NCBI GenBank assembly: GCA_048885925.1
Contig: JBHLLG010000001.1
Location: 259,105 to 323,104 of the forward strand
Origin: Candidatus Hermodarchaeota archaeon
GTDB taxonomy: Archaea > Asgardarchaeota > Lokiarchaeia > Sigyniarchaeales > SOKP01
Length of the DNA: 64,000 bases
Direction: 5' to 3'
Shown: piece by piece, positions 19,271-60,489 of the stretch
How positions within the stretch are numbered: the stretch's first letter is position 1
How the letters are laid out: every line of letters begins with the position of its first letter
Made by a program: the position numbers and the translations under genes
Notes under the pieces: generated by a model
What the model saw: the letters and a program-made list of their open reading frames with translations, nothing else
Databases searched by the model: none
Told to the model about the DNA's origin: nothing

Positions 19271-19425
19271 ATCAGAACCAAAATATGTTTAATCTTAATC
19301 TTATATTGTAATTATTTAAATGAAAAATCAAAAAATCAGGATAAAAAAGAAATTTTATGAAAAAAATAAGAATTCAATAATAAAAAATGAATTAATTTCG
19401 AGTCATACCTCGAAATAAATTTACC

Positions 19426-19884
19426 ATGTCCTTATCTCAAGACTTATTATTTGTCTCCAATGCTTTTATGCATATTTCTATTTGAAATGCCTGTTAACCT
19501 GATTAAGTGAACATTTTCTTTGATATTTTAAGTAAAATCTATGGTTCTGCCACTTCTGAAATAATGTACCTTTTTTATTTAATTAATAAATTTAAACGAG
19601 AATTTCGGGAAGATACAGTTGTATAGATTCAATCAATACTCAGTGCTATCGAACCTCCAGTTAGTATTGATGCGCTATTTAGAACGCTCGGAGCTTTTAT
19701 ATTATGGCGAATTATTGGTAAATATTGGGAAAAAAATCTAGAATTACGATTAAATCTTAATGGAGATATGATACGGAATAAAAATTATAAATTTTATATA
19801 TCGGTATTGATATCTAAACTTCTTAAAACTACATTAAAACAAAAAATTGTAAATGAATTTAACTCATTTTTAGAAAGATTCTAA
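19426..19884 (+). pseudogene. Possible decayed ORF
   Basis: Single frame from ATG 19426 to TAA 19884 with four in-frame stops; last 85 codons open. Confidence 0.3.
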
Positions 19885-19892
19885 TTTTTTTT

Positions 19893-20432
19893 TTAATCAT
19901 TATCTTCCTTTTTTTGAGCCTTGGTCTCTCTATATTTAAGATACCTTCTTTTTAGAATCATTATTAACAGGTAATAAAAAGCACTGGTTCCGATGATAAT
20001 TAATATTATAAGTATAATAGAACCAACTACATAATAGGGTGGGTATGTCAAGATTGTAAATAGATTGACTTTAAATGAAACGAAAGTGATATAGGTAAAT
20101 AAAGTAATTAACCCTAATAAAGGAATGAATTTCGCTATTAAAATAAGGAACGCTCTAAAGTAATATTTAAACCAGATCCATCTTTTCTTGAGTGAAGATC
20201 TAATTCGATTCTGGAGTGGTTCTAAATACCTCACAGGCTTATGCCTTTCTGTTGGTAATTTATCCGTTAGTCTTGGCACTTCTTTAGCTAATTCTAAAAT
20301 ATGTTCTTGAATTATTTGAAGTTCCTTCATAAATGGTTTAATTTGTTCAAAATCTTCTCCCTTTGTCAATTGTTCCAATTGCTCTTGATGGTTTTTAAGA
20401 AATCGTTTATACTTGTTTTTCAACCTTGTCAT
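19893..20432 (-). CDS. Hypothetical coiled-coil plus 2-TM membrane protein
   Basis: ORF with TATA about 23 nt upstream. Confidence 0.75.
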   Translation of the reverse strand: MTRLKNKYKRFLKNHQEQLEQLTKGEDFEQIKPFMKELQIIQEHILELAKEVPRLTDKLPTERHKPVRYLEPLQNRIRSSLKKRWIWFKYYFRAFLILIAKFIPLLGLITLFTYITFVSFKVNLFTILTYPPYYVVGSIILIILIIIGTSAFYYLLIMILKRRYLKYRETKAQKKEDND

Positions 20433-20454
20433 ACATATATATTATTCATACGGC

Positions 20455-20505
20455 TATTTAAAAAGAAAATAAAAAAAAAACTACTATTGTCTTTTTTTTT
20501 AAATA
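20455..20505. promoter_or_regulatory. Back-to-back T-tract/TTTAAATA promoters
   Basis: Minus-strand TTTAAATA at 20455-20462 and plus-strand TTTAAATA at 20498-20505, each preceded by a T run, between divergent genes. Confidence 0.6.
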
Positions 20506-20551
20506 GAATTGGATCTTATTATTTTAAATCAATACCAAACAATGAACAAAA

Positions 20552-21220
20552 ATGACAGATAATCACAGTTATAGTTTTTTTGGACAGAAAGTAGGCTTGA
20601 TTATTCAAAGTTCTGCGAAAATAGATCCTTACATGTTTTTCAGGCTTATTAGAAACAAGAATGACGGATCATGGGAGAAACCAAGCAGCGGAGAAGGGAA
20701 AGTTATTAAATTTTCATTAGAAGAAATGATCCATATTATCCAGGTGCTAAAAAAAGAAGTTGATTCTTGGTCAAGTTATCATACCTTTAAGGATACGAAA
20801 ACGCAAATCGCTTTTAAATGGGAAAATGGAGAGAAGAAAAAGCTATGGATCCATATTGATAAATATTCCAAGATGTTAGATTATGCCCAATTTACGATAT
20901 TAGAGATGCTCATGAGTCACATCTTGACAGAAAAGATAGAGTTTGCTACTAAATTGAGTACAAAAGAAAATAATGGCACTTACATTGTTGAAACACGAGA
21001 AGGTATATCCAAAAATACGAAAGATACATTAAAAGTAATAAAAATTTCTGGAATTATCAAAGGAGTCTCATCAAAAGCGTTATTAATTGAGTTCCCAAAC
21101 GAGCAAGAAGTATGGATACCGAAATCCACTATAAGTTCCAATTATATTGAAGATCAAAAGGATTCTCAATCGTTTAATATTCAAACGTGGATCTTAGAAA
21201 AAAACAAAATAACCATATAA
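20552..21220 (+). CDS. Putative ssDNA-binding protein (PC4/Whirly-like N-terminus, small beta-barrel C-terminus)
   Basis: Repeated beta-beta-beta-helix pattern (GSWEKPS..IKFSLEEM; KMLDYAQF); C-terminal SKALLIEF..EVWIPKS. Confidence 0.45.
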   Translation: MTDNHSYSFFGQKVGLIIQSSAKIDPYMFFRLIRNKNDGSWEKPSSGEGKVIKFSLEEMIHIIQVLKKEVDSWSSYHTFKDTKTQIAFKWENGEKKKLWIHIDKYSKMLDYAQFTILEMLMSHILTEKIEFATKLSTKENNGTYIVETREGISKNTKDTLKVIKISGIIKGVSSKALLIEFPNEQEVWIPKSTISSNYIEDQKDSQSFNIQTWILEKNKITI

Positions 21221-21265
21221 TCTAAATGTAATCAATAGTATTTATTGTATAACACTAAAATGAAA

Positions 21266-21658
21266 TCACATAGCGGGAGGGGCAGTCATAAAGTATTTAC
21301 CTGGAAAAATAATAATCAAGAAAAATGCAAATAATGCAACATATATAATAATATAAAAGAGTTGTTTATATGAGAAGAGTCTCGATTTTTCTTTATATTG
21401 CAAAACATTTTTTCCAAGATTTATAAATATGAGAGCTAAAAAAAAGAAAAAAGATGAAAAGATTACTAAATTATAAAAGACATAGTCCACAAAGTAGAAA
21501 TACGCAGAGCTAGTCCATTTATTAAAATAATAAATTACAAAAAAGGAACTTATCGGAATTATTGCAATTGCTAAAAAAATTAAGCCCCCAATAAGATAAA
21601 GTATACTTTGAATTCTTTTCTCCATAGTCTTTTCAAGAAGAATATTAAGATAATTCAC
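21266..21658 (-). CDS. Hypothetical membrane protein (3 TM)
   Basis: Hydrophobic ORF. Confidence 0.6.
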   Translation of the reverse strand: MNYLNILLEKTMEKRIQSILYLIGGLIFLAIAIIPISSFFVIYYFNKWTSSAYFYFVDYVFYNLVIFSSFFFFLALIFINLGKNVLQYKEKSRLFSYKQLFYIIIYVALFAFFLIIIFPGKYFMTAPPAM

Positions 21659-21681
21659 TATATAATTTTTTATGTATATCT

Positions 21682-22890
21682 TTACTCAGTGTTTATTCCA
21701 ATCAATTGAAGCACATTCTCTATTTCACCCAAAATTTCTAATTTGGTTGCATCTCCAATCTCATGTTTTTCTATATTATCAATGATATGTTCTAAATTAT
21801 TTAATTGAGTAAAAATCCACTGAATATATGAATCGCACTCCTCAGTTGGAGAAGGCATAGGAACGGAAATGTCTTCTAAATCTGATTCAGACAAAATTTC
21901 TATTTCTGGCACCTTTGGTAATTCCATTGGGGGTGATTGTGGATAAATCTCCAATTTTTTTAGAATCTCATGAAGATCATCTCTATCTTCTTCTAATAAC
22001 GTATATCCTGAAACTTTCATACGAGCCCACTCCTGAATAAATTCTATAGGGATACCCTCCTTCCAATGATGATTTCGCAAATAATTATATAATTTCTGGG
22101 GCATGTATAATTCTTCTAATTCCAGATGGGCGGGATTGACCTTTTTCTCACGATAATCATGCATTAACAGGATAAATTCTTTCCCAAGCTGTTTATTTTT
22201 GGATACAATCGTTTCATATTCCTCAGAAAAATCTTTCACGACAGTCCGTGGTTTCAATCTAATCGAATTAATCTTGGGAATATCGATCTTATAAAATTGG
22301 CTGGTATAAGCAATAATTGAATGCCAATATTTTTTATCATAATCACTTAATATATTTGCTAAATTCTCTAAATTGCCCACTTGATTTAATTCTTCAAAAA
22401 TTCGTAATGCCACAATCTTAATTTTATGAATTCTATCTTGTAGGGTACCCACACTATCAAAATCTGAACATAATTTCTTTTCAAATTCTAATTCAGAATC
22501 CATAACATCATAGTTTAGGAATTGCCCACTTTTTTTGTTAAAGAATATAAAGGTGGATCCATTAGCTAAGTTGGAAACATTTTCATTCGAGTTAATAATA
22601 CAGCGAATTCCTTCTAATTGAATAATTTCTTTTACTTTCTCAGTTCTAGCATTATAAATAAAAAAAAGAGTAGGATTTTGGGAATATGAATTGGATTTTT
22701 CGAACTCAATAATCTCTTTTAAGTTATGGAGAGCTGTTGATTCCAAGTCTACAATATTATATCCTTCTCCAAATATTTCTAGAGAACGGAGATGTTTCAT
22801 ATCTATATACGGAAATATAACTAAATTTTTCTGCTGAAAAAATAAAATATTTAAAAATTCTGGTCGCAAAAAATCCATTCCTGTATCCAT
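21682..22890 (-). CDS. Hypothetical protein
   Basis: 402 aa ORF co-oriented downstream of the GTPase. Confidence 0.75.
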   Translation of the reverse strand: MDTGMDFLRPEFLNILFFQQKNLVIFPYIDMKHLRSLEIFGEGYNIVDLESTALHNLKEIIEFEKSNSYSQNPTLFFIYNARTEKVKEIIQLEGIRCIINSNENVSNLANGSTFIFFNKKSGQFLNYDVMDSELEFEKKLCSDFDSVGTLQDRIHKIKIVALRIFEELNQVGNLENLANILSDYDKKYWHSIIAYTSQFYKIDIPKINSIRLKPRTVVKDFSEEYETIVSKNKQLGKEFILLMHDYREKKVNPAHLELEELYMPQKLYNYLRNHHWKEGIPIEFIQEWARMKVSGYTLLEEDRDDLHEILKKLEIYPQSPPMELPKVPEIEILSESDLEDISVPMPSPTEECDSYIQWIFTQLNNLEHIIDNIEKHEIGDATKLEILGEIENVLQLIGINTE

Positions 22891-22930
22891 AATAACACCT
22901 GTTTTATATTGAATTATTCCTTAAATTGAG

Positions 22931-23623
22931 TTAACCCTTAAAATAATTGAAAAGTACATGAAGGATGAGATCTTTAAAACATTGAACCACATTTTTTCCT
23001 TGTAATGCTTCGGTTGGATAAACAATATATGTTCCATCTGGATATTTTTCTTGGAAGGGAAGCCCCAAATGAAGTTTAAAATCGGTAATAGGAATAGCAT
23101 TTTTTAAATCACGTTTGTTTAACTGGATCAAATAGGGAATATTCTTCGGCTTAGCAAAACTCACTAGCTCTCGAAAGCTTCTTTTATTCTGTTCTATTTT
23201 CTCTGGATCTGAATCCCCAACAAACATGATTCCATCCGCTCCGTCCAAAACATATTCACGAGTAGATAAAAACCGTTCCTGCCCTGTACATGTAACCACA
23301 TGACAAATAATATTAAACTTGACATCATGAAGATTAAACTTGAACAGTAAATAGAGTGAATCTTCCCATAGTGTTCTTCCTTCTGTAGTCTCTATTGAAT
23401 AACCTTTAGTCAATTTCAGCAGGTCAAACTTTTCTCTTAAGCGAAAGAAGTTTGTGGTTTTCCCGCTTTCACCTGGTCCCCAGTATACAATCTTAAACTG
23501 TATCATGTTTTTTGAATCATTGAAATCAAATTCTTCACTTAATTCCACTTTCTCTTTTCCTAAATCACTCTGTTCTGACTGCATTGTATCACCTGAAATG
23601 ATTTCTTTAGGAAATGGTGCCAA
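22931..23623 (-). CDS. mglA: MglA-family small GTPase
   Basis: KIVYWGPGESGKTTN, TCTGQ, LDGADGIMFVGDS, QLNKRDL. Confidence 0.85.
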   Translation of the reverse strand: MAPFPKEIISGDTMQSEQSDLGKEKVELSEEFDFNDSKNMIQFKIVYWGPGESGKTTNFFRLREKFDLLKLTKGYSIETTEGRTLWEDSLYLLFKFNLHDVKFNIICHVVTCTGQERFLSTREYVLDGADGIMFVGDSDPEKIEQNKRSFRELVSFAKPKNIPYLIQLNKRDLKNAIPITDFKLHLGLPFQEKYPDGTYIVYPTEALQGKNVVQCFKDLILHVLFNYFKG

Positions 23624-24206
23624 TTTTATCAGTAAATATCTCTTTTTTCAGCTCTTTAATATGGTCTTTCAGATCTTCCTCTGATAATTTGAGTTTATGT
23701 TGAATATATTCACTTTTTTCGATTTCTTCTTTGATCTTCTGCGCAAATTTGCTCATCTGAAGTATCATCACTCCTAGATTGACTTCTTTATCGGTTAAAA
23801 GTACAACTAAAATGTCTCTTTTCCCCTTTTTGTGGAGGTCAACATTGGTTATAGCCTTCACAAACAATTGCATATCACTATAAATAATTGTTGCCCGTTC
23901 CAACGACTCTGTTTCAAAGAAATCTTGACCTTGTCTAGCTACACCATAGAGTGCTGCTCCTATAGAGCTTAAATCCCAATAATTTAATTTTCGATCGAAT
24001 CGAGAGTCGATTGCGATAATTTTGGCGTCTTGATCAATCGTAATTAGTCCGTATATAATTCCTTTTCGAGTTAACTTACTATACTGGAATCTAATATCAT
24101 CTAAAACTTCAGTTATTTTATTTTGATATAATATTTTTGGAATATGAGTTATCATTTTCTCAAACTTATTCTTTAAATTATGTTTACATATTATTGGATT
24201 TTCCAT
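23607..24206 (-). CDS. Roadblock/LC7 (MglB-like) protein; ATG at 24155 is the likely start
   Basis: LITIDQDAKII...LSSIGAALYGVARQ...EVNLGVMILQM; overlaps the GTPase start. Confidence 0.7.
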   Translation of the reverse strand: MENPIICKHNLKNKFEKMITHIPKILYQNKITEVLDDIRFQYSKLTRKGIIYGLITIDQDAKIIAIDSRFDRKLNYWDLSSIGAALYGVARQGQDFFETESLERATIIYSDMQLFVKAITNVDLHKKGKRDILVVLLTDKEVNLGVMILQMSKFAQKIKEEIEKSEYIQHKLKLSEEDLKDHIKELKKEIFTDKIGTIS

Positions 24207-24260
24207 ATATAAAGAAAAAAAATTTAATTAATGTGATTCTAGAATATTTCTTAAGACAAT

Positions 24261-24557
24261 TTGGAGAAGATAATGACTTACTGTACAAATTGTGGTGTTA
24301 AATTAGAAGGAAATGAAAGTTTTTGTCCGCTTTGTGGAAAAACTTTAACTAGCGATATACATTCCACTAGTACGAATGAAATTGAATCCCTTAAAAGAGA
24401 AGTCGAAAGTTTAAAAGAACAGCTCAGAAAAAAGGATACATATATGCCAATACCTCAAAAAAAAACAGATACCACTTGTATTATATGCTGTGTAGTAGTG
24501 ATCTTATTGATGATTTTCTTTTCAATCATTCCGTTTATGCTTTTTTATAGTATGTAA
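24261..24557 (+). CDS. Zinc-ribbon, coiled-coil, C-terminal TM protein
   Basis: YCTNCG...FCPLCG, coiled-coil segment, CIICC-containing TM. Confidence 0.75.
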   Translation: MEKIMTYCTNCGVKLEGNESFCPLCGKTLTSDIHSTSTNEIESLKREVESLKEQLRKKDTYMPIPQKKTDTTCIICCVVVILLMIFFSIIPFMLFYSM

Positions 24558-24718
24558 AATCAAATAATCTCTAAATTTGAGTTTCTTTTGAAGTTTAGTT
24601 TTTTCTCATTAGAATAATGATTTTCTTTTATTATTACATTCCTCCGCATGTTCTGTTATAATGCATCTTAAATTTGTTATTCAAAAATTAAATAATGGTA
24701 TAAGAACACTTTTAAAAC

Positions 24719-25324
24719 CTATAAATTGTTCACATACTCCGTATTTAAGCCAAGTTTATTGCGAGTTCTATGGAATGCGTAGGCGGAACAACTACACAGC
24801 GCTCTTAAGTTGGTTTGGATTATTTTTTGCTCCTGTTGTTCATCTAATAAATCAGTAATAAAAATAACAACAGCTATTTGCGTCATAACCCGAGGCCAAA
24901 AAAATATCTGGTCGAGTTTCAATTTTAATCGCTTTGCATTTTCTTTAGCACGTTTATAATCAAAAATAGGAGCTAGACGGTAGAATTTATGTAAATATAT
25001 CTGAACTTTCCGATCTTGTCTCTTTGAACTAAGAATAGAGGGATTCTCATAAAGAAACTGTTTTAATCGTATTAAATTGACCAGAAATTCGCTGATAAAT
25101 TTATGAACAAGTACTTTGGGTATTTTGATTCTTTTACATATCTGATTATATTCCATCGATGTTAAAGCTCGTACTTTTTCTTGCTTTCCTAAAAAAGAAA
25201 TATTTCGAAATAAATAATTTAACACTAATGGCTTAATTTTATCCTGATCCTTGAAATATTTTGTGTAATAATCTTCTACCTCAGTTAGGTCAACTTCTTG
25301 TCTCTTTAATATCTGAGTCATCAC
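24719..25324 (-). CDS. Hypothetical protein, C-terminus resembles a TFIIB cyclin repeat
   Basis: QIAVVIFI...IIQTNLRALCSCSAYAFHRTRNKL resembles the TFB C-terminal HTH. Confidence 0.45.
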   Translation of the reverse strand: MMTQILKRQEVDLTEVEDYYTKYFKDQDKIKPLVLNYLFRNISFLGKQEKVRALTSMEYNQICKRIKIPKVLVHKFISEFLVNLIRLKQFLYENPSILSSKRQDRKVQIYLHKFYRLAPIFDYKRAKENAKRLKLKLDQIFFWPRVMTQIAVVIFITDLLDEQQEQKIIQTNLRALCSCSAYAFHRTRNKLGLNTEYVNNL

Positions 25325-25418
25325 TTTTCATGGGCTTTATCAAAGGCTTACTATACCCTAATAGCAAGAATATTTAAATAAAAAATTGGAAATCATTCTA
25401 AAATCACGTAAAATAATT

Positions 25419-26504
25419 TCACAATAACTTCATTTGTATTTTTTTTGGAGTCTTGCTTTGATGTTTGAAATAATCACGACATTTTGTATAATTATGTTCT
25501 AACTTCTCTAGGTTTTGTAAAACTCGTACTTTATTTAAAAAATGTTCTTGACATAATAAAGCTAAGATTCTTTCCTTATCGGGAAAATTCCAATATAAAA
25601 TTCCTATATTTTCATTTATATCAGGAGCTAAAAAGATTGCTCTAATTTTTTTAATTGTTTTGGGTTTAAGAGTACCAAAATCATAGTTTAAATGTTCTTT
25701 AAGAATTAAATTCTCAAGGGTAATATATTTTCTAATAAGAGTCAACGCTTTTTTTGATCCGATTCCTTTGATCCCTGGAAAATAATCAGTTCCAATTAAT
25801 ATTGCTATATCTACCAATTGAAAAATGGTAATCCCTAAATTCTCTAAATTTTTATGTAAATCAATTTTTAAAGGTTGAATTTTCTCATACCTCCATTTGT
25901 TCTGAATTTTTCTTCTCATAGATTTTGAAAGATTTTGAATTACAAAAGGGCACCCAAATAATAATGAATCGAAATCTTGAGAGTTTGAAAAGTCAACGAT
26001 TTTTTTTCTCACTAAATATGCACATTGTGATTCTGCTGAGGCTGGTGATTCAATATATGGTACTCCTAATGCTCCAAGAAGGTGTTTCGATTCTAAGATT
26101 ATGTTATGCCACATATATTCCTTACTTAAGGCAATCTGACTTGCTAAAGAGGTGTTTCCACTTTTCATTGCTTGTTTGTACCACTTCTGCGTGAATCGAA
26201 AATCATTGAGTTGATCTTTCGTAATAATTCTTTTTAATTCAGATACCTTTCCATCAAAACAAAAAATCGGGAAAATGTTTTTGGAATAATAAAAACTCAC
26301 ACGATACAAAATCCCGTATAGATGAGAAATTGGTCTTTGAGTTCTATCCAAGATTAGCTCGGCATAGGTTCCATCTGGATTTTTCCGAGCAAAACTAAAT
26401 AAACCCATAATAATATTGGGGGCATCGATGGCAATGATTTTCCCTGCTAATTCGGGAAAGTTAATTTCTTTCCGGACAATGATATTTTGCAATTTTACTC
26501 CCAT
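25419..26504 (-). CDS. fen: Flap endonuclease FEN1/XPG family, divergent
   Basis: MGVKL start, IAIDA, FCFDG, SQDFDSLLFG, GTDY..GIKGIG. Confidence 0.9.
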   Translation of the reverse strand: MGVKLQNIIVRKEINFPELAGKIIAIDAPNIIMGLFSFARKNPDGTYAELILDRTQRPISHLYGILYRVSFYYSKNIFPIFCFDGKVSELKRIITKDQLNDFRFTQKWYKQAMKSGNTSLASQIALSKEYMWHNIILESKHLLGALGVPYIESPASAESQCAYLVRKKIVDFSNSQDFDSLLFGCPFVIQNLSKSMRRKIQNKWRYEKIQPLKIDLHKNLENLGITIFQLVDIAILIGTDYFPGIKGIGSKKALTLIRKYITLENLILKEHLNYDFGTLKPKTIKKIRAIFLAPDINENIGILYWNFPDKERILALLCQEHFLNKVRVLQNLEKLEHNYTKCRDYFKHQSKTPKKIQMKLL

Positions 26505-26689
26505 GAAATTGTGTACGAATATGATTATAAAAAGAAAAAAAAGAGTTGAATAAACTAATTCGCTCAAACCTATTTAGATTAATTTAATTCTAAAAAATAT
26601 AATAACAATTAAATAATAATCTTCCTTAATTTTTATTTAACCCATTATTTCGTAATTTATTTAAAAATTTTTGTAGAAATCCAATAATT

Positions 26690-27013
26690 TTGAAAAGGGG
26701 TATGAAAATGCCAAAATATTTTGTAATTCATCCATTTGATAAAAGGTTTCAAGAAGCGATAATAGACCTTCCTCCTGAGAAAAACAAATTAATGCAAGAT
26801 TTAAAAGCCAATTGTACGGATGATGCTGATTGGATAAGAAGTTGGGCAGTACCAGAACAAGAAAAGTTCTATTGTGAATGGGATGCAAAAAGTCCTGAAG
26901 CAATTCGTGAAGTATTTGATAAAATTGGAGGTACAGCAATAGACGCAATTTATAAACTACATATTTTAGAAGCAGAAGATTTTAAGAAAAAGGTCTTGAC
27001 TGAACCAATTTAA
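26690..27013 (+). CDS. DUF4242-like protein
   Basis: WIRSW...KFYCEWDAKSPEAIREV. Confidence 0.7.
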   Translation: MKRGMKMPKYFVIHPFDKRFQEAIIDLPPEKNKLMQDLKANCTDDADWIRSWAVPEQEKFYCEWDAKSPEAIREVFDKIGGTAIDAIYKLHILEAEDFKKKVLTEPI

Positions 27014-27164
27014 CCATAGGATTTGAAGGCTGAGGTTCTTGAAGGAGTTTTGGTGGTTTAATTTAATTCAATTTAGTAAATTAGTTTAATTTTGTAACTT
27101 TGTTCCCATATTATCTTTTATTTAATCCAAAAATATAAAAAGAAAAAAAAGGAGTTAAGGTTTT

Positions 27165-27227
27165 TTACCATCCTTTAATTAGATGGTATAGACGTGTTAA
27201 TCGGCAGAAAAATCGTATTTTCATCAT
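27165..27227 (-). CDS. Candidate 20-aa peptide MMKIRFFCRLTRLYHLIKGW (or small RNA)
   Basis: Own TATA at 27275-27282, adjacent GGTGA, T-rich tract downstream. Confidence 0.3.
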   Translation of the reverse strand: MMKIRFFCRLTRLYHLIKGW

Positions 27228-27312
27228 TCACCTTCAAGTTTGTAATTATAGCTGAATAGTAGATCAAGCACGAGTATTTAAAAAAAAAGTAAAATTTTAG
27301 GGAAAAAAGAGA

Positions 27313-27555
27313 TTATTCGTCAAAATCTTTTTCCAGAGATCTAAAGAATTCTTTACGAGTATTTTTATCTTTTAATTCTTCAAAAGCATCCATAAATCCC
27401 TCCAGTTCATCCTCTGATAAAATATCCTCATCTTCAATATCACTATCAAGATCTTCTTTAAAAAAAATCCGTCCGCATTCCTGACATTCTATATAATCAT
27501 CATATTCGATAATATTATCCGATTGGCATCGCGGACAGTAATATTCCGAAGGCAT
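27313..27555 (-). CDS. Small TFIIB-type Zn-ribbon protein with acidic tail, paralog B
   Basis: MPSEYYCPRC...CQECG; same 80-aa length as paralog A. Confidence 0.8.
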   Translation of the reverse strand: MPSEYYCPRCQSDNIIEYDDYIECQECGRIFFKEDLDSDIEDEDILSEDELEGFMDAFEELKDKNTRKEFFRSLEKDFDE

Positions 27556-27871
27556 CCGAGGATTGAATCTCATACAGATTTGAATACTAATTAGTATTAT
27601 AGCTGAAAATAAAAACTTATCATAATCTCTAATAATAACAATAAATATCGAAAATTGCATAGAAGTTCGTTTTTCACTACATTCTATAATTTATGCATTT
27701 ATAATAACCATGCTTATTTAAATGAAAAGTGCTGCTTCTAAGTCGAGGTTTTTTCTTTAAAAAGAATAGGCATTAGAGTATCACTAAAAGAATAATATGA
27801 AGTGAATGTAAATTACTAAAGAAGAATATCATGTTATAGGACTGAGACCTGTTTCTCATTCAAGAATAATT

Positions 27872-28189
27872 ATGTATATTTTATTTGGAATCTTGGTGTT
27901 TGTGGTTATTTTCTTTCCTATTTATGGACTTACATTGAGATATTATATAGGGTATATACTACAAAGGGTTTTTGATATTATTGGGTATTATTCTTTAATA
28001 GGAGGAGGATTTTTATTGTTACTTTGTATAATAGGACTTTTTGTAGGAAGACGTATAACATACCATTATTTTATACTGGCGATTGTACTTTTATGGATAG
28101 GTGGGTGGTGTACTGGACAAGTAATCGAACTATTTGGGATTGCGATTAACGAATCTACTACTTCACAAGGAACTCCAGGATACCACTAA
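27872..28189 (+). CDS. Small membrane protein (3 TM)
   Basis: Hydrophobic ORF. Confidence 0.7.
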   Translation: MYILFGILVFVVIFFPIYGLTLRYYIGYILQRVFDIIGYYSLIGGGFLLLLCIIGLFVGRRITYHYFILAIVLLWIGGWCTGQVIELFGIAINESTTSQGTPGYH

Positions 28190-28204
28190 CAAGGTTTTTT
28201 TAAT

Positions 28205-54100: not shown

Positions 54101-54989
54101 GCATTTTAGCGAGAAAAAAATATTAGAACATGCCAAGCGAACAATATTCGAAATTGATCTGGATAATTATTATATCTATGTAGAAGAAGTGATTCAATTC
54201 TTAGATTATGTAAAAACTATAGATCAAATGAGTCTTTACAATAAAAATCTTAAGGAGAGTTTAAAAAAAATTATCTATCTAAAACTTTCGAGAGCTAATA
54301 TGAAAAAAGAGCACATGAAAAAGGTACGGGATGGGTTGTTAGATGTATTAATCAAACAAGGATATCTAGTTGAACATCATCCCAGACAGGCAAGTGGTTC
54401 ACAAACAATAAGAACATCATATTGCGTTGGAGAGCGCTATCAACAAGCTTTAAAAGAATATTTTAAGACAAAAGGAAAGGCACAGACTGATATTAATGTT
54501 GAGATCATGGAAAAGGCAACTACGCAGACTCCCCGTCTCACAGATATATTTAAGGTATCCCAACCACCTAGAAAATATATTATCCAAAAAGAGAATCTCC
54601 AACTAGCATTAATGCGTGAATTTAGCCATTTTCATTTTGATATATTTAAAATGTATCGCTATATCAAACATGAAGATTATGCCCAGGTATTAAAGATCGG
54701 ACATGATTTAATTAGTCAATTTTTAACAGGGGTATACAGAGATTATAATAATATGAATGGGGAAGTTACTGCCCCTATTTTTTCACAATTTCTAGAATAT
54801 TTAGTGACCTTCGAGCATTTTCCGTTTACCTTAGCAGAACTTCATAACTATATTGAAAAGTATAAATTAATCGATGTTCAAGCAGGAGGACCATTAGCCA
54901 TAGAAGTATATCAGTTTCTTTACATTTTTTTTATTCGAATTTTAAATTACATTTACAAGGGATATAATAACAATGGAATCAACAAATAA
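51162..54989 (+). CDS. Large membrane-anchored HerA/VirB4-like P-loop protein with degenerate Walker motifs
   Basis: Two TM hairpins; NLLIINGETKQRE at the Walker A position, LIFDYSG, VIIDLS, IIVPNVDN at the Walker B position, GLIVTANQ. Confidence 0.65.
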   Translation: MVKGYDTEDEMFEISTRKKKKVVIEEKGVPKHRFRLWDDNPSFKDINTTFSYIKLGFLSVMVMFIIISSYLLFGNVWGAVGFGIFCLVIFIGIFHEEFHGLRYLFRFGTTLTINLFEDFVFWYEKEAPKTLYLSNKKDLIHIALQIYKITVIPEKIHAAIVNFVRAMGSKDIRLSYSYQIVQKPIIPLDYTNISRETALKSLHSKEATIYFIVFYREKGLLTQHKIDHMNYFITKYSNNLKSNLVSNFHHFKTKCLSRDALVNAIRTFFVKTDISSKQNNTKTSHHYINKAHFLGKLSITCILLIYIDIVLFTIKLFYGYILLINSVFIVSFLFIWWRVAFFQITKRRLYHNHKYVVVNPFKNLRVHFSKIYPYTLFIHIDQRVLLGMKMVNLKHVFKSPYCDIGKFIESLNNQNVYFSYTLRNGALEYYYVYKYGLKHMYEKVKKKMLFHPYKRIKNEEDSEVWLGYRAGMWYSLLTMSANIYRFTSKIHNDLLREVENELVRQIDTLKGAFNGNSYGYQLEDLRGATLLSGFLFSCLKYNGFRLNGSHLNYIMMQGTTMYSLTAIADILKKGVEAEIPAEFNTPLYLENFLTIGYTINTEVLESEVPVGFTHDQIKNLLIINGETKQRELICLKIVAELIKVQLPSLIFDYSGIWSKLMSYFRYTRYEQDILYFKYRSAFVIDPISSDIPHDKNQIEYINYMLYAFGLALKKDDRTIEMFRNILQRHPDEDLKTIVTSLKNQSEWEKSPISDVLLSLLSDFSQEDLSYFQSAQTKGIVPNDFIRNNKTVIIDLSAIKELNKKSYLTFTILAKIIHYINQGGKFYEKCIIVPNVDNFFDFFYLDIKRNYDKVDLFLKPLFDNNFGLIVTANQIHYLHANFLLYFHNYITLRATDNRDVSILRNIMNLNELEGTGYYSDSRKNSYQVLYLKNLKDNKVLIRRDDIAQLFPALIAWEDLDESPLMSYVEIVRHMKDQGYDVHFSEKKILEHAKRTIFEIDLDNYYIYVEEVIQFLDYVKTIDQMSLYNKNLKESLKKIIYLKLSRANMKKEHMKKVRDGLLDVLIKQGYLVEHHPRQASGSQTIRTSYCVGERYQQALKEYFKTKGKAQTDINVEIMEKATTQTPRLTDIFKVSQPPRKYIIQKENLQLALMREFSHFHFDIFKMYRYIKHEDYAQVLKIGHDLISQFLTGVYRDYNNMNGEVTAPIFSQFLEYLVTFEHFPFTLAELHNYIEKYKLIDVQAGGPLAIEVYQFLYIFFIRILNYIYKGYNNNGINK

Positions 54990-55311
54990 ATTCATACATG
55001 AAAATTTGGAAGCGATCTTATTTGATGAAGATCGGCTTACCTCATTAAAAGAAGCCATTCATAAAGTCGCAATGGGAAAACTTTCGACTCGAGCTTTTAA
55101 GGATCTGTTTCTTAAATCTCAAATTCAGTTGTTTGAAAAATTAGTGGATTTTTTTCCTTTCTGTGTTAAAAATATGAATACTGCCCTCTCTTTGGATACG
55201 ATCACAAATCAAAAAGATCTTTCTCCTGAGTTAGAAGAAAAGGATAATGTTATTAAAGAAATTGGAATAAGGATACAAAGAATTTATGAGAAATTAAAAG
55301 AAAAGATATAA
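54973..55311 (+). CDS. Hypothetical protein
   Basis: Overlaps the upstream stop; last gene of the operon. Confidence 0.65.
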   Translation: MESTNKFIHENLEAILFDEDRLTSLKEAIHKVAMGKLSTRAFKDLFLKSQIQLFEKLVDFFPFCVKNMNTALSLDTITNQKDLSPELEEKDNVIKEIGIRIQRIYEKLKEKI

Positions 55312-55483
55312 AAGAATTTTCACAATCTCTTTTTCTCTCTTCAGAATTGGAAAAAACACTATAAAAGGTATTTAAAGAAAAAAAATTGCATCCTATTTCT
55401 TCTTTTTTATTTAAATATACTCGGCAATTTTGATGTTAAATAGGAGTAAGCCTCCCATTTAATACTCAATATAACAAAATTGA

Positions 55484-56767
55484 TTGACCATGTTATCAGT
55501 TTCCTATGATGAAATGTTTATGAACTTCACTCAACAGTTTTTACAGTCATTCGAAAAAATTGCTAATTGTGATTTTCAAGTAGGTACCCATTTTGATTTC
55601 GAAATTGAGGGAAGAACTCAAAAGAAGCGTATCAATCCTCTTATTCGATTAGCGACACCAGAAGATATCGATGAAATTATTTTTACTTATAGAGATATTT
55701 ATGAAGATTCATATCCCTATAAAGAAATGGAAGATCCAGGAGAAATTCGAAGAATGATTAAGAGTCCTAATGTTGAGTGGCTTATTTTTGAGACTTTATC
55801 TGGTGAAATTGTTGGAAGTTTTACCTTTATACTTGACTTTGAGAAAAAACTAGGAAATATTCGAGGATTTGTCATAAAGAAGAAATTCTTAGGAAAAGTT
55901 GATATTATGAAGATGGCTATGGGCTCCATCATCGCCATGTATAAGAAATATAATGATAGAATTTTTCGGTGGTACGGAGAATGCAGAACTGCTCATACCA
56001 AATCTCAACATTTTTGCAGTGCGTTTGGGTTTAAACCTGTTGGTTTCTATCCTTGTAAGGATATTTTCTATAATAAAGTTGAGTCTGACTTATTAATTGT
56101 AAGTTATGACGAAAGGGCTTTGACTACGCTGCGATGTAAAAATACCCCAAAAATTCTTCCTGAAGTTCTTAATGGGTTTTTATATTCTGATAGGCGCTAT
56201 CATTTAGGTTCATGCAAAATTGAAAATTTCAATAATGTTAGTTATAATAATCTCAAAATTAAAAAATTAGGAAAAATGCTTTTGAGAAACATATCAAAAG
56301 ATCGATTTGGCTATGAAACGATTATATTTTCTTTTGATAATTCAGATTCTTACTTTGAATTTTTATATACTCCTACTGTTCAGAATTTTGAAAAAACATC
56401 TTATAAAGTAAATTCGATAGAAGAACTTTATGTATTTGTTAAAGAATTTTTGAAATACGGAAAGCAATATAATATCCGTTATTGCGAAGCTTTTGTCTCT
56501 GCATATAAACCTAATCATCAAAAATTATTTTATGATTTAGGTCTTTATCCACGAGGTTATGTTCCAAGCTGGAATTATAATCATCAAACAAGGAAATTTG
56601 ACGATTTTATCTTATTCAATTGGTATCGGGGAGAGATCGTAGATATTCAGTTGCTCGATGAAGGTAAAGATCTTTTAGATATACTAGGAGTTCAATATTC
56701 CTGTGAATCGCGAAGTATTCAACAGAAACATATGAAATTGTCACATTTATCTCCTTTGAAATTATGA
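55484..56767 (+). CDS. GNAT-fold N-acyltransferase-like protein
   Basis: IRLATPEDIDEI, ECRTAHTKSQ, GFKPVGF, GYVPSW. Confidence 0.65.
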   Translation: MTMLSVSYDEMFMNFTQQFLQSFEKIANCDFQVGTHFDFEIEGRTQKKRINPLIRLATPEDIDEIIFTYRDIYEDSYPYKEMEDPGEIRRMIKSPNVEWLIFETLSGEIVGSFTFILDFEKKLGNIRGFVIKKKFLGKVDIMKMAMGSIIAMYKKYNDRIFRWYGECRTAHTKSQHFCSAFGFKPVGFYPCKDIFYNKVESDLLIVSYDERALTTLRCKNTPKILPEVLNGFLYSDRRYHLGSCKIENFNNVSYNNLKIKKLGKMLLRNISKDRFGYETIIFSFDNSDSYFEFLYTPTVQNFEKTSYKVNSIEELYVFVKEFLKYGKQYNIRYCEAFVSAYKPNHQKLFYDLGLYPRGYVPSWNYNHQTRKFDDFILFNWYRGEIVDIQLLDEGKDLLDILGVQYSCESRSIQQKHMKLSHLSPLKL

Positions 56768-56857
56768 AATCTTAATTAATTCGTATTTTCTTTTAAATTA
56801 ATATACTTTAAATAACCCAAGGCTATAATCATTAAAAAATAGGAGTAATTACTTATA

Positions 56858-57727
56858 TTATTCAACAAACTCTTCCATCTTTAATTCTTTTTTTATTAAG
56901 TAATTTGATTTTTTATAAAGACCAGTAAATATAGTGATGAATATAAATATATCTATTGATTCTGCTATAATGACAAATAAAGAAGATTCACCGACAATAA
57001 ATTGTATTATCGGCCTTAAAATGGATGTGATTAAATAGAAGCCAAATCCAATCATGAGGATAAAGGTGTTAACTTGGGATAATCGTTGATTTCTCCACGC
57101 AAAATTAAACAACCACACAATCGCGATCAATGAAGGAAGAATTGTAATTGGATATATGATGGGAGAATTTTCTATAGTTAAAACAAAAATATCGACAATT
57201 ATTTCAATAGCAACAATTATTATTAAAATCCAGGTTCTAACCGTATTGAGAGTGTTTTCGTTATTCAGTCTTTTGAACCTTTGCCTCAATGAGAGTGAAA
57301 ATAAAATCATAAAAATACTAAGGGACATCATTGGGAGGAGATTTAAGATTGCGATAAGATATCGAGCTTTCATAACAAGGAGCAGTAATTCTTGATCTAA
57401 CTGAAAGTAACTAAAATCAATGAATAAGTCTAATAATTTTCCAAAAATAAGCAGTAAGAAAAAGATACCGAACAGAAAAGGGATATCTGAGAAATATTGT
57501 TTTTCTTGTTTAAACCATCTATAGAAGGTATAGATTGCCATTAAAGAAACAAGAAACACACGAATCCCTATAGTTATGACAATTGTTAAGGTCCCTTCGT
57601 GGGTTTGGTAAGTTTCAACTAAAATAGCCCAATTAAAAATATATAGAAACGAGATAGCAATGATTCCAATTATAATACTACATACCAATAAAGGCAAAAA
57701 AGTTAATTTTATTTTTTGAAAAGTCAT
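56858..57727 (-). CDS. Multi-pass membrane protein (7-8 TM)
   Basis: Hydrophobic ORF. Confidence 0.75.
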   Translation of the reverse strand: MTFQKIKLTFLPLLVCSIIIGIIAISFLYIFNWAILVETYQTHEGTLTIVITIGIRVFLVSLMAIYTFYRWFKQEKQYFSDIPFLFGIFFLLLIFGKLLDLFIDFSYFQLDQELLLLVMKARYLIAILNLLPMMSLSIFMILFSLSLRQRFKRLNNENTLNTVRTWILIIIVAIEIIVDIFVLTIENSPIIYPITILPSLIAIVWLFNFAWRNQRLSQVNTFILMIGFGFYLITSILRPIIQFIVGESSLFVIIAESIDIFIFITIFTGLYKKSNYLIKKELKMEEFVE

Positions 57728-57893
57728 ACACTCTATTTTTCACCTAACTATAAAAATTAATATTTTTTTTAAAAAACAATATTTTAAAGGGCAAAGAAAG
57801 CTATTTCTTGAGTTTTCAAAATTAGACTTTTATTTTTTTCCTTTATATATAATAGGAAAAGAGTAGTATCATAAAATATTTTTAATTTAAAAT

Positions 57894-59042
57894 GTGAATT
57901 TACTGATGCAAGTAGTAGAAAAAATAGATTTAACAACATCGTTTGACCTTGAGGAAATTAGGATTGCATTACAAGACACTCTGTATGTGCCAAATATTTA
58001 TGTAAAAAGCAAAGTAATTGATGAAATTATCCTTTATTTAAAGAAATGTTTTTCCGAACCAGAGTATAAAATGAAACCAATTATTGCATATTATAATGGA
58101 AGGGTCTTAGGATTTGTACTTTGTTGTATTGAACCTCATTATACTAGTTACAGTAGAAAATGTGGTACCTTTGGATGGTTACAAGCAGATTCTTTAGAAA
58201 TTTGTAGGCATTTAATGAGAGAATGTGAGCAATTTATCAAGGAAAATAAAATTAGAAGAATTAGAGGTCCTATTAACTTTCCTAAAAGTATGGGAGGAAT
58301 GGGAATACAATTTTTAGGTTTCCGAGAACAAATGCTTTATGGAGTGGGATTTACAGATCCTCAATCAAAAGTTCTAGAATGCTTAGAGGCTTTAGGATAT
58401 CAGAAAGAATCTGAATATACTTGTGTTTATGTCGCTCAAAGAAGTTGGACAAAAGGAAAAAAAGTCGATAAAAATATTGTTCTTAAATATCTCACTTTGG
58501 ATGAATTGTATAATCATATTGAAGCTATTGAAAATTTGGCTGCGAATTCATTGTATCAAATAATGCCTGACTCCTCGGGAATTAACCGCATTTATGAAGT
58601 CTTTGATGCGTACCGTAAACAACCTAAGTCTTTTTATAAACTCAAGACAGAATTTAACCCAAGAGATTACACAAATATACCAGAGTTTATAGAAGCTTGG
58701 GAAAATTGTGACCTCGAGAAGATTGAAGCTCAACCTACGGCTTTTGATAGAAAGACTGGAGAATTAGTAGGCATTATTTTGACCCTACCTGATTTATTTG
58801 AGACTTGGACTGGAAATCCAATTACTCGTGTGAATGTAGATACCGCAATGATAAAAAAAGGCTATTATGGAAAGGGTATTTTTTCAGCACTTAATAATAT
58901 TGGTCAAATCACGTATAGTCTACGAGGTGCCTATTATTATGAAGGAACATACATATGGTCTAATAACTCACGGGCAATTGACACAATATTTCCCCATTGT
59001 AAACCGATACGAAAACACTATGTAATGCAAAAACGTATTTAA
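57894..59042 (+). CDS. Double-GNAT-fold N-acyltransferase-like protein
   Basis: GTFGW..IRGPINF, YYGKGIFSAL, IWSNNSRAI. Confidence 0.65.
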   Translation: MNLLMQVVEKIDLTTSFDLEEIRIALQDTLYVPNIYVKSKVIDEIILYLKKCFSEPEYKMKPIIAYYNGRVLGFVLCCIEPHYTSYSRKCGTFGWLQADSLEICRHLMRECEQFIKENKIRRIRGPINFPKSMGGMGIQFLGFREQMLYGVGFTDPQSKVLECLEALGYQKESEYTCVYVAQRSWTKGKKVDKNIVLKYLTLDELYNHIEAIENLAANSLYQIMPDSSGINRIYEVFDAYRKQPKSFYKLKTEFNPRDYTNIPEFIEAWENCDLEKIEAQPTAFDRKTGELVGIILTLPDLFETWTGNPITRVNVDTAMIKKGYYGKGIFSALNNIGQITYSLRGAYYYEGTYIWSNNSRAIDTIFPHCKPIRKHYVMQKRI

Positions 59043-59096
59043 TACATAAAATTACAATTTATTTTATTAAACAAAAAAAAATTAGAGATTTTCTTA

Positions 59097-60260
59097 TTAT
59101 ATTGGAATTGTAGGTTGCGCCTGTTTTTTCTTTCGGTACATATCGATATTTTTTCTTATTGAATTTCTATTTGGATCTTTTTCTACTTGAGTATTGATAT
59201 ACTCAACTATTTCTTCTTGAGTAACTCCAATCTGATTGAAAAAGGTATTTACCGCTTCTGTTTTGAATTTGTTTTCAAGAATTAAAGGAGCTACCATTTT
59301 TAATGTTCGCAACCATTTCTTTCGTGACTCTGGATTTTGACGTACCAATTCAGCATATTGACAAGCATATAAGATACCACCGTATCTGTTTAAGTCATAG
59401 AACGTAGCAGCATGGATCACATTGCAATTGGTAAGTAATGGATCAGAATGACCTTTTTTAATATAGTTTTTTGACTCTACTAAGGCAATAATATCTTGTT
59501 CTCGATATGGGATTATGTGGTAAGGAAGTAACACACGAGGAATGATTCCACTCTGTATTTCTTCTGGAGTTAAATACCATCTATGGTCATATTCGTTAAA
59601 AGAAGGATCATTGAAAACTAAGTCTGGCATCCAATTTTCAATAACTTCTTTCTGTGGCATTTCATAGAAATAGCGAAAGGTTTGGTCAGGTGAATAACCA
59701 AATAATACATAAGAAATTTCCCGTTTTATTGCTTCTTTTACTACAATACTATGGATTAAATCAGAACAATGATCACATATGCAACGTGCTAAAAAGGTCT
59801 CATTAGATGTATGATTAAAGAAATGCCATTTATAGAGTTTGGCAAACGTGCTTTTACAATCTTCAATAACCACATGTTCCACCCGAATTCGATCCAATGT
59901 ATCTTTGATATTAGTTTTCGCAATCTCTGTCATAAAACCTGTATCTGAAGTAACAGTTAAAGGAGTTAATCCTATATCATTTACCAGATAATCTAAAAGT
60001 GCTGTTGAGTCCTTTCCTCCGGAATACCCTAAAATGCAATCATATTCTCTTTGACCATGATTTTTTTGCATATCTTTTACCACTAACTCCCAATCTTTTA
60101 GAGCCTTGTTCTTTCTTTCCATAGTAATTATAGTTCGAAAATAATTGACATTTTGATAGGTGGAGTCTGCACAGAAATTACAAAGTCTATCTGAATTCAA
60201 TTTAATTCCCAAAAACCCTTCAGGTAAAATACATTTTTGGCATATATGTTGTTGTATCAT
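59097..60260 (-). CDS. PP-loop N-type ATP pyrophosphatase (N-acetyl sugar amidotransferase-like)
   Basis: CQKC..CNFC N-terminus, YDCILGYSGGKDS, CDHC. Confidence 0.8.
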   Translation of the reverse strand: MIQQHICQKCILPEGFLGIKLNSDRLCNFCADSTYQNVNYFRTIITMERKNKALKDWELVVKDMQKNHGQREYDCILGYSGGKDSTALLDYLVNDIGLTPLTVTSDTGFMTEIAKTNIKDTLDRIRVEHVVIEDCKSTFAKLYKWHFFNHTSNETFLARCICDHCSDLIHSIVVKEAIKREISYVLFGYSPDQTFRYFYEMPQKEVIENWMPDLVFNDPSFNEYDHRWYLTPEEIQSGIIPRVLLPYHIIPYREQDIIALVESKNYIKKGHSDPLLTNCNVIHAATFYDLNRYGGILYACQYAELVRQNPESRKKWLRTLKMVAPLILENKFKTEAVNTFFNQIGVTQEEIVEYINTQVEKDPNRNSIRKNIDMYRKKKQAQPTIPI

Positions 60261-60489
60261 GTAATCACTTTTTAGAAAGTTCTATGATCTAATTAGATAG
60301 TTGTATTTAAAGGAAAAATAAATAAAATCTTTCAATTTCGTTTCAGATTGTAAATTAGACTTTATTAAATAGAATTATGATAAAATAGTCCATATTTTGA
60401 GTAAATTATCTGTGGTTTCTTCCGATGTTATTTGAAGGTTTAAGATAATCTCACTTTCATAAATTTATATTACTTCTACTAATATAAAA

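Follow-up and report, generated by a model that had tools for sequence, protein, structure and literature searches.

The orientation and selection of promoters in archaea and eukaryotes are attributed to a purine-rich TFB-recognition element (BRE) that is read by TFB/TFIIB. In bacteria, regulons under alternative sigma factors, such as the competence regulon of ComX with its cin-box, mark DNA-uptake and recombination genes by a changed upstream element, and the TFB3 response of the Sulfolobales includes Ups pili and Ced DNA import. In M. jannaschii the BRE is reported to cover nine bases upstream of the TATA box, with position -34 as a highly conserved contact (PMC2699501). For TFB paralogs, reports describe a Sulfolobus TFB2 cell-cycle regulon with a similar BRE at a different spacing (bioRxiv 10.64898/2026.09.06.749720) and, in Halobacterium, a subtle 'AA' or 'CG' emphasis within the BRE (PMC3542263), and two further reports concern activators, a TFB3-type activator of DNA-damage genes in the Sulfolobales DNA-damage response (PMC6101594) and TFB-RF1 of Pyrococcus furiosus, which acts at promoters with a weak BRE (PMC5937170). 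Full-text searches turned up no account of an oligo-T BRE or of promoter motifs for the lineage studied here, and a paper on Asgard promoters does not deal with core motifs. Here we analyse a 64,000-nt stretch, hereafter the window, from the genome of Candidatus Hermodarchaeota archaeon, an Asgard archaeon (G000:C1:259105-323104, where G000 denotes the source genome, a 3.9-Mb assembly of 181 contigs with 29% GC). Most transcription units of a gene island within this window are headed by a run of T's (the T-tract) set directly before a TATA box, at the place of the BRE. We consider these T-tract/TATA sites very probably to be functional promoters of a dedicated class.

All 19 sites that the original prediction had listed in this island were present, each with a T-rich run directly 5' of a TATA-like octamer and facing a gene. 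Ten of them have the strictest form of the pattern, TTTTTNTTTAWATA, and the remaining nine are variants in which the box reads TTTAAATT, TTTTTATA or TTTATAAA, or in which the spacer is 2 nt long (CC or CA). The window contains 12 exact matches to TTTTTNTTTAWATA, namely the ten listed sites together with 35844-35857(-) and 55369-55382(-), and all 12 fall within 20492-55417; by comparison, 100 dinucleotide-preserving shuffles gave a mean of 0.37 matches and a maximum of 2. The mirror control AAAAANTTTAWATA, in which an A-run stands before the same TATA box, has a single match in the window with 0.45 expected. Five extra copies beyond the listed 19 (27141(-), 27756(+), 35851(-), 43832(-) and 55376(-)) bring the total to 24 sites, all of which have TTTAWAWW-like boxes aimed at the downstream gene.

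The distribution of the motif across the genome was compared with a set of 3,441 genes called from open reading frames (ORFs); long ORFs can be trusted here, as AT-rich DNA is rich in stops. A loose pattern, TTTTTNTTTAWAW, occurs 349 times on both strands of the 3.9-Mb genome, with 20 occurrences in the island, and the strict pattern of the original prediction lies no more than 150 nt upstream of a gene 25 times in the genome, 12 of them in the island. When 20-kb bins were counted (n = 302), the two island bins were the richest, with 12 and 7 matches, and the next best bin had 6. When the pattern was relaxed to a spacer of 0-2 bases, the island, which provides 6,397 of the 721,259 intergenic bases, or 0.89%, contained 18 of the 142 intergenic matches (p = 1e-15, binomial test); with the same pattern and a range of 130 nt upstream of each gene, 15/42 island genes carried a match compared with 32/3,399 other genes (p = 7e-19, Fisher's exact test). 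The motif is not equally frequent outside the island or in shuffled DNA. Matches outside the island lie mostly in coding DNA or do not face a gene. The 14 non-island genes with an upstream match that were annotated have miscellaneous functions, with two exceptions: a paralog of island gene 20552-21220 on contig C12 (65% identical, its start 29 nt from the motif) and an RPA gene. A chance or compositional origin in AT-rich intergenic DNA, for which the low GC content and the commonness of T-runs and TATA-like words in this genome might speak (TTTAWATA occurs 3,434 times), is refuted by the shuffles (0.37 versus 12), by the intergenic test, by the mirror A-run without excess and by the conservation in orthologs described below, and can be given practically no probability. 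The motif is real, strand-specific and gene-proximal, and elsewhere in the genome it does not occur as a class.

The RPA gene outside the island (G000:C24:10548-12266 (-)) has a T10-AAATA 64 nt upstream, near position 12330, and was tried as a regulon member. It proved uninformative: its promoter is conserved in two relatives, G005 and G006, and also in the island-less G021, and the upstream region is conserved as a whole rather than in the motif alone.

To count transcription units, a unit head was defined as a gene whose upstream gap measures at least about 50 nt or whose neighbour is divergent, and two doubtful ORFs without a match in relatives (24273-24557 and 26702-27013) were left out. 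By this definition, 20 of the 24 unit heads within 16358-60321 carry the motif, two of them as relaxed variants (20462 and 27756), and none of the 18 flank heads carries the strict motif, with distant variants at two of them, 1557-1946 and 12582-12824. This distribution points to a gene set that would be co-regulated and switched separately from its surroundings.

The upstream element of the island sites was then set against that of the genome's ordinary promoters. An expectation-maximization (EM) motif model that allowed at most one site in each sequence and used a second-order background was applied to 2,289 non-island upstream regions; from TATA seeds it arrived at a-a-A-n-n-TTTAAATA, found in about 37% of the regions with A at 76-77% at -3 from the box, and from a T-tract seed it did not converge on the same regions. 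Simpler approaches brought out less: a plain alignment of 746 non-island TTTAWATW words gave flanks near background, base frequencies by position and 6-mer peaks around start codons gave Shine-Dalgarno-like signals only, and ratios of sense to antisense 8-mers gave a mild A bias only. tRNA promoters were tried as a reference set and dropped in favour of the EM model, as the only 12 tRNA genes that ARAGORN detected in G000 (3.9 Mb, completeness 95%) were too few for a consensus; so low a count suggests tRNA genes that contain introns or are unassembled.

In the matrix built from the 24 island sites, T stands at 100% at -6 to -4, at 92% at -3 and at 88% at -2, C reaches 50% at -1, and the matrix stays T-rich as far as -14. 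At -3, which corresponds to -34 of M. jannaschii in the numbering of PMC2699501, 22/24 island sites have T, compared with 77% A in the genome's general promoter. A purine- or A-rich BRE directly upstream of their TATA boxes is thus not what the island sites have (T 88-100% from -6 to -2), and the original prediction of a T-tract in place of the BRE holds against a general promoter derived de novo. One of its flank controls, an 'SRP RNA' promoter, is not confirmed, as no Rfam family reached the gathering threshold in the window, and ARAGORN also found no RNA gene there. The island class resembles the classical archaeal BRE/TATA promoter, as described for M. jannaschii (PMC2699501), in its 8-bp TTTAWATA box, its orientation, the distance of about 29-32 nt from the first T to the start of putatively leaderless genes and the presence of a specificity element directly upstream; it differs in that this element is oligo-T rather than purine- or A-rich. 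The oligo-T class thus appears to be a new variant of the archaeal core promoter in which the purine-rich element has been replaced wholesale.

The spacing to the start codon was likewise as proposed. For the six genes predicted to have the spacing of leaderless transcripts (ATG at 20432, 26504, 28423, 36255, 38154 and 39949), the ATG lies 30, 29, 32, 29, 29 and 28 nt, respectively, from the first T of the TATA box; over all sites, seven have an ATG at 26-32 nt by the same measure. Genes genome-wide show Shine-Dalgarno signals and no leaderless TATA peak. The distance is conserved in orthologs although the intervening bases differ: it is 29 nt for the 126-aa gene (ATG 36255) in G000, G005, G003 and G012, 29 nt for the 247-aa gene (ATG 38154) in G000, G005 and G012, and 32 nt for the 72-aa gene (ATG 28423) in G000, G005, G006 and G012.

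At least four back-to-back pairs of sites lie between divergent genes (20462/20498, 28455/28483, 47408/47784 and 55376/55410). In three compact pairs both T-tracts lie between the two TATA boxes, in DNA that is not transcribed, with TATA starts 28-36 bp apart, and relatives have the same compact modules with TATA starts 28-39 bp apart. Because of these pairs, a pure terminator role is ruled out, as the original prediction had argued from sites between divergent genes. Termination by oligo-T and nucleosome exclusion by poly(dA:dT) are both established, the former in archaea, and one could suppose that no dedicated factor is involved: the T-tract would serve structure or insulation, as an intrinsic terminator that halts read-through ahead of each promoter, as a rigid A-tract that keeps histones off, or as both, and the island would have kept an ancestral promoter cassette through descent and duplication. 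The island T-tracts do resemble archaeal oligo-T terminators in having at least five T's on the coding strand and, in some cases, in lying just 3' of a same-strand gene. About seven of the 24 sites are so placed, 2-170 nt downstream (for example, 25378 after the FEN1 gene, 36284, 43533, 43832, 39921 and 55410), and may have an additional role in termination; paralogous modules that carry the motif also indicate some spread by duplication. As a whole, however, the sites are not found 3' of same-strand genes inside transcribed regions, many of the T-tracts stand between divergent TATA boxes where nothing is transcribed, and their distance from the box is fixed at 0-2 nt. The motif has also been kept while neighbouring bases and the encoded proteins (37-65% identity) diverged, which indicates selection and not mere descent. 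We regard an explanation without a dedicated factor as very unlikely.

Conservation was examined in the genomes of relatives (G003, G005, G006, G012, G021 and others, of which G006 is a closed genome). Among 14 relatives, the motif is present at 85/103 orthologous island unit heads (80 strict) and at 6/47 orthologous flank heads (2 strict), proportions that are given without a significance test because the relatives are not independent. In alignments of the upstream regions, the T-tract/TATA block stands almost invariant amid diverged DNA; the block TTTTTTATTTAAATA before the 427-aa gene, for example, is kept in 13/14. This conservation argues for function. The island is syntenic in G005 and in part in G003 and G006, and G012 has the same gene order, the comparison there being of the island itself. 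Flank proteins are 75-87% identical to those of G005, compared with 37-65% for most island proteins. A 1275-aa island protein, used as a marker, was detected in 20/23 genomes of the genus (35-55% identity), some of which have 2-4 matches (it is multi-copy in G012, G014, G016 and G020), and had no match in G021; outside the genus it has weak matches only, in other families. In G006 the island genes are spread over at least three loci (205-224 kb, 492-496 kb and 2,641-2,645 kb) and the motif is present at every piece; the motif thus follows the genes when the island is broken up. Across six genomes, motif counts track the amount of island content: 68 matches (control, 22) in G012, which has three loci with the 1275-aa gene, 35 (control, 22) in G006 with its island split in three, and 6 (control, 17) in G021, which lacks the marker, and, in genomes of other families, 15 (control, 20) in G037, 14 (control, 9) in G031 and 1 (control, 1) in G032. 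None of these three other-family genomes contains a motif cluster. Judged from these comparisons, the island is a gene set that is conserved within one Asgard genus and evolves fast.

Some of these features could also suit an old integrated mobile element or provirus with its own promoter type and an element-encoded reader, a reading that overlaps with others discussed here. The island proteins evolve faster than those of the flanks, host repair genes are duplicated in the island (their other copies are 31-43% identical), some genomes have 2-4 copies of the 1275-aa gene, and the protein's likeness to HerA/DUF87/TrwB (0.89-0.90) offers a lead, though no more than that. As to variable position, the island has the same context in G005 and in part in G003, is split in G006, has a multi-copy marker in four genomes and has none in G021. 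Against such an origin, Pfam, PHROGs, NCBIfam and PADLOC searches detected neither an integrase nor a capsid, terminase or replication initiator, and scans of viral contigs for relatives of the 1275-aa protein, of the RadA-like protein and of the aligned 1275-aa family were negative. Moreover, context and gene order are shared with G005 and partly with G003, gene order is kept in G012, the marker is present in 20/23 species, and GC content is flat along the window, with no difference between island and flanks. A mobile origin is accordingly given a low probability.

How would such a promoter be recognized? TBP would bind the TTTAWATA box, and the 5-10 T's directly upstream, with a spacer of 0-2 nt (usually C), would fill the position of the BRE. 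With T:A at the key BRE position instead of the A:T of ordinary promoters, a housekeeping TFB should bind poorly, so that something at the level of the initiation complex would have to read the T-tract. The most likely reader would be one of ten TFB paralogs encoded outside the island, acting like an alternative sigma factor, and the best candidates would be a genus-restricted group of three, named after their contigs C106, C9 and C3. That a TFB paralog reads the T-tract is possible, and we favour it tentatively.

The ten TFB genes of G000 were found by a six-frame search for the TFIIB cyclin family and lie on contigs C24, C3, C9, C79, C74, C106, C2, C44, C116 and C15; three TBP-like genes lie on C154, C58 and C152, so that all are on contigs other than that of the window. 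The product of one TBP-like gene has 428 aa, with other domains on either side of its single TBP repeat. At E <= 1e-90, the C106/C9/C3 group was detected in 23/23 genus genomes and in only 3/16 genomes of other families. C2- and C15-type TFBs were considered as co-occurring readers, being missing from G021 in a TFB tree of three genomes (G000 and G006 with the island, and G021, in which the island marker was not found); this looked promising, but failed when extended to 40 genomes. The C-terminal recognition helices of the ten proteins fall into four variants that differ at two neighbouring positions.

The original prediction had an alternative TFB, encoded in the island, define a sigma-like regulon. 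One part of this stands, in that a distinct promoter class linked to the island exists; the 'island TFB' does not exist according to the six-frame search, and no paralog tracks the island. Two marks of a sigma-like regulon are present, several TFB paralogs and a distinct motif confined to a subset of genes, and a third, a TFB paralog that co-occurs or is encoded with the motif class, was not found. Several observations weigh against a TFB reader. The island contains no TFB or TBP gene, and there is no TFB gene on the whole 388-kb contig of the window; the motif is found upstream of none of the ten TFB and three TBP genes; and no paralog has a distribution across genomes that matches the island. 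The C106, C9 and C3 types are all present in the island-less G021. The C2 type, found in 20/23 genus genomes, was not found in the island-bearing G007 and G008, and has orthologs (55-69% identity) in other families without a motif cluster, and the C15 type reaches at least 69% identity in only 8/23 genus genomes. A T-(L/I/V)-R-x-R core in the recognition helix is common to all ten TFBs, so that a specificity switch from A to T is not evident from sequence. Four island units do without the motif (the glycyl-radical operon 32226-35665 and the genes 38578, 56858 and 27313). Finally, a BRE replaced wholesale by a T-tract would be without precedent beside the BREs of TFB paralogs that the Sulfolobus and Halobacterium reports describe, which are similar or subtly different. 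The island resembles these regulons in its many paralogs, in a gene subset with its own promoter flavour and in the sigma-like logic; it differs in that the whole element is replaced and no paralog is tied to the class. An alternative TFB as the reader of the T-tract is thus a reasonable and plausible reading to which none of these observations lends specific support. A search of sequencing runs listed no RNA run for 24001-34000, and two metatranscriptome runs of one study placed nothing on 19001-39000, which only a DNA run covered; neither result bears on expression.

The lack of a TFB paralog that tracks the island favours a factor that moves together with it. The T-tract could be a deliberately poor BRE to which a dedicated non-TFB activator or recruiter, perhaps encoded in the island, brings the ordinary TFB, TBP and RNA polymerase (RNAP); such a factor would contact either the polymerase or the DNA, in the latter case at the T-tract or beside it. 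The known recruiters sit upstream of the BRE and not in its place, which counts against this reading, and a homopolymer would be a strange site for a sequence-specific factor to recognize. Precedents are activation at weak BREs (PMC5937170) and the TFB3-type activator of DNA-damage genes (PMC6101594). As with TFB-RF1, promoters whose BRE is poor for the general TFB would need help in recruitment, but the TFB-RF1 case, as reported, is a single operon and about 20 units are headed by the island class; a factor like TFB-RF1 did not turn up here. The island also keeps conserved small proteins without assigned function, and zinc-ribbon or zinc-finger proteins, among them a ribbon with an acidic tail (27313-27573) that resembles RpoP/Rpb12. 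It scores 24.8 bits on the RpoP/Rpb12 Pfam family (cut-off 24) and E ~1e-3 against Rpb12 chains in PDB, and its match to the TFIIB ribbon is weak (E = 0.002, which misses the cut-off). The island gene is a second copy, the canonical 53-aa RpoP being encoded at G000:C24:20690-20800 next to a TFB gene. TFB3 is described as a truncated TFB acting as an activator (PMC6101594), whereas no TFB3-like gene was identified here and the island ribbon is closer to RpoP/Rpb12. Paralogs of the ribbon are encoded at 12582-12824 (-) in the window and at L063:7663-7998 in G006, the latter within a further motif cluster, which suits a recruiter. An acidic-tailed ribbon would, however, not bind DNA, and no significant DNA-binding domain was found among the island proteins, the best being a helix-turn-helix (HTH) at E = 0.02-0.03. 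Overall, a dedicated recruiter seems somewhat unlikely.

Alternatively, the T-tract/TATA block could be an operator, with a repressor or silencer on the BRE/TATA region that keeps the island off until a signal such as DNA damage, comparable to the LexA boxes of the bacterial SOS regulon or to the silencing of foreign AT-rich DNA. Archaeal repressors commonly overlap this region, the gene content (RadA, Hel308, Hef and FEN1 paralogs) is like that of a damage or recombination regulon, and the compact modules are inverted repeats (TATTTAAAG-A7...T7-C-TTTAAATA, TATA starts 28-36 bp apart) that could suit a dimer. Most sites are single and not palindromic, however, and what is conserved is core-promoter geometry with a kept distance to the ATG, whereas an operator could sit at variable distances; family searches among the island proteins also found no candidate repressor. 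On balance, an operator is distinctly improbable.

Returning to a TFB paralog as the reader, the gene content bears on what such a factor would control. The island encodes FEN1-like, RadA-like (with an extra C-terminal helix-hairpin-helix, HhH), RadB/KaiC-like, Hef-like and Hel308-like proteins as well as HhH and zinc-finger proteins, an operon with an Arf-like GTPase, a 970-aa protein with a prenyltransferase-type toroid domain, a PP-loop amidotransferase-like protein, and many proteins without any family match. FEN1, RadA, Hef and Hel308 have other genomic copies at 31-43% identity, which makes the island genes second, divergent copies. Operon 47810-55311 encodes an HhH protein, membrane proteins and the 1275-aa protein. 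By a language-model score of 0.89-0.90 the latter lies near HerA/DUF87/TrwB-type ATPases and is possibly HerA/FtsK-like, which, with a role of the membrane operon in DNA transport, we treat as a lead only; a profile search of the protein against PDB sequences gave nothing significant, and an AlphaFold2 model of residues 440-1010, built on 8 sequences, was of poor quality (mean predicted local distance difference test, pLDDT, 41). PADLOC found no defence-specific genes in the island, and PHROGs and PADLOC gave generic helicase and recombinase matches only. In combining recombination and repair paralogs with a membrane operon, the island is like the Sulfolobales TFB3 response, in which a TFB-related switch serves genes for DNA exchange and repair. 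One could go further and propose that a TFB paralog, sigma-like and switched to oligo-T, runs a DNA-exchange or recombination programme made up of the translocase-like operon and the private RadA, Hel308, Hef and FEN1; this specific combination is quite unlikely. The joint switching would be like that of the ComX/cin-box regulon, with a different transcription machinery, and the comparison is an analogy only.

The positions of the island and its sites are given in Table 1.

Table 1. Island, T-tract/TATA sites and zinc-ribbon gene (window coordinates; spacings are those to the gene named)
Feature	Position	Strand	Remarks
Island	16358..60321		about 24 transcription units, 20 headed by a T-tract/TATA promoter; syntenic in same-genus genomes
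Promoter, TTTTTCA-TTTAAATA	19313..19330	-	about 50 nt before 970-aa gene 16358-19270
Variant promoter, T-rich, C at -3, TTTAAATA	20455..20472	-	30 nt before ATG 20432; half of a back-to-back pair
Promoter, T9-AAATA	20488..20505	+	54 nt before gene 20552-21220; pairs with 20455..20472
Promoter, T8-C-TTTATATA	24206..24223	-	heads operon 24206->21266 including Arf-like GTPase
Promoter, T6-A-TTTAAATA	25371..25388	-	57 nt before gene 24719-25321
Promoter, T8-C-TTTTTATA	26526..26543	-	29 nt before ATG of FEN1-like gene 25419-26504
Orphan, T8-C-TTTTTATA	27134..27151	-	no ORF of at least 70 aa behind
Orphan, T9-AAATA	27275..27292	-	just 3' of RpoP-like gene; same-place copy in G005
Zinc ribbon, acidic tail, 86 aa, RpoP/Rpb12-like	27313..27573	-	no T-tract promoter of its own
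Relaxed variant, T6-C-TTTAAAAA	27746..27763	+	116 nt before membrane-protein gene 27872-28189
Promoter, T6-G-TTTATAAA	28448..28465	-	32 nt before ATG 28423 (72-aa membrane protein)
Promoter, T7-C-TTTATATA	28473..28490	+	56 nt before 28539-28856; back-to-back with 28448..28465, TATA starts 28 bp apart
Promoter, T6-C-TTTAAATA	31622..31639	-	66 nt before RadA-like gene 30346-31563
Orphan, T9-AAATA	35844..35861	-	no ORF of at least 70 aa behind
Promoter, T10-AAATA	36277..36294	-	29 nt before ATG 36255
Promoter, T9-C-TTTAAATT	38176..38193	-	29 nt before ATG 38154; operon with RadB/KaiC-like ATPase
Variant promoter, T6-C-TT-TTTATATG	39911..39928	+	28 nt before ATG 39949; operon with Hef-like helicase
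Promoter, T6-G-TTTAAATA	43526..43543	-	40 nt before 43260-43493; kept in 9/9 orthologous regions
Promoter, T5-A-TTTAAATT	43825..43842	-	63 nt before 43542-43769
Promoter, T6-C-TTTAAATT	47401..47418	-	heads operon 47303->43858 including Hel308-like helicase; kept in 11/12 orthologous regions
Promoter, T6-C-TTTAAATA	47774..47791	+	26 nt before ATG 47810; heads operon 47810-55311
Orphan, T8-C-TTTAAATA	55369..55386	-	back-to-back with 55400..55417, TATA starts 34 bp apart
Promoter, T6-A-TTTAAATA	55400..55417	+	80 nt before 55490-56767; kept in 13/14 orthologous regions
Promoter, T7-CC-TTTATATA	57832..57849	+	64 nt before 57906-59042; kept in 11/12 orthologous regions
Promoter, T5-CC-TTTAAATA	60304..60321	-	51 nt before 59097-60260; kept in 8/10 orthologous regions; right edge of the island

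The four orphan copies may drive small ORFs, non-coding RNAs or antisense RNAs, and the copy at 55369..55386 (-) aims antisense into the end of 54973-55311. At the promoter of the 427-aa gene (55418-55445 and orthologs L043-L060), a GTTAAA is conserved about 26-30 nt 3' of the first T of the TATA box and is a candidate initiator region. A further group of sites was seen in G006 at G006:C1:1204784-1208684 (L063:6791-10712), where three near-identical back-to-back modules, TTTTTCTTTAAATA / TTTTTCCTTTAAAW, with TATA starts 34 bp apart, lie 1.0-1.6 kb from one another among small genes; the triplet looks like a tandem duplication of a promoter cassette.

Two of the island units without the motif deserve separate mention. 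The operon at 32226-35665 (+) encodes a glycyl-radical enzyme, whose best NCBIfam match is indoleacetate decarboxylase (below the cut-off), and its activase; the operon was not found in the islands of G005, G003 and G012 and is probably a later insertion. The gene at 56858-57727 (-), which has no island promoter, encodes a 289-aa protein with eight predicted membrane segments, and a 93%-identical copy lies at G000:C2:114553-115377. Beyond its edges, the island is flanked by two paralogs of the Ldh_2 family (malate/L-lactate dehydrogenase-like), 67% identical to one another, at 9915-11075 (-) and 60490-61596 (-), and the same pair flanks the island in G005. A block of small genes at 13022-16031, between the left Ldh_2 region and the island, had no match in the regions compared in G005, G003 and G006 and appears to be specific to G000.

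More than a dozen species have kept the motif. A TFB paralog as the reader of the T-tract would make this the clearest example of sigma-factor-like promoter selection by a protein of the TFIIB family, and this in the group of archaea nearest to eukaryotes; with another factor as the reader, the motif would point to a new recruitment route for the archaeal initiation complex. Should the reader turn out to run a sigma-like recombination programme, the island would be an archaeal counterpart of bacterial competence regulons or of the Sulfolobus UV response. With either reader, the locus provides a precise 15-bp cis-element in about 20 natural copies, with natural negative controls in the same genome, and it flags a conserved, unstudied set of genes, private recombination enzymes together with a membrane operon, as a unit of regulation.

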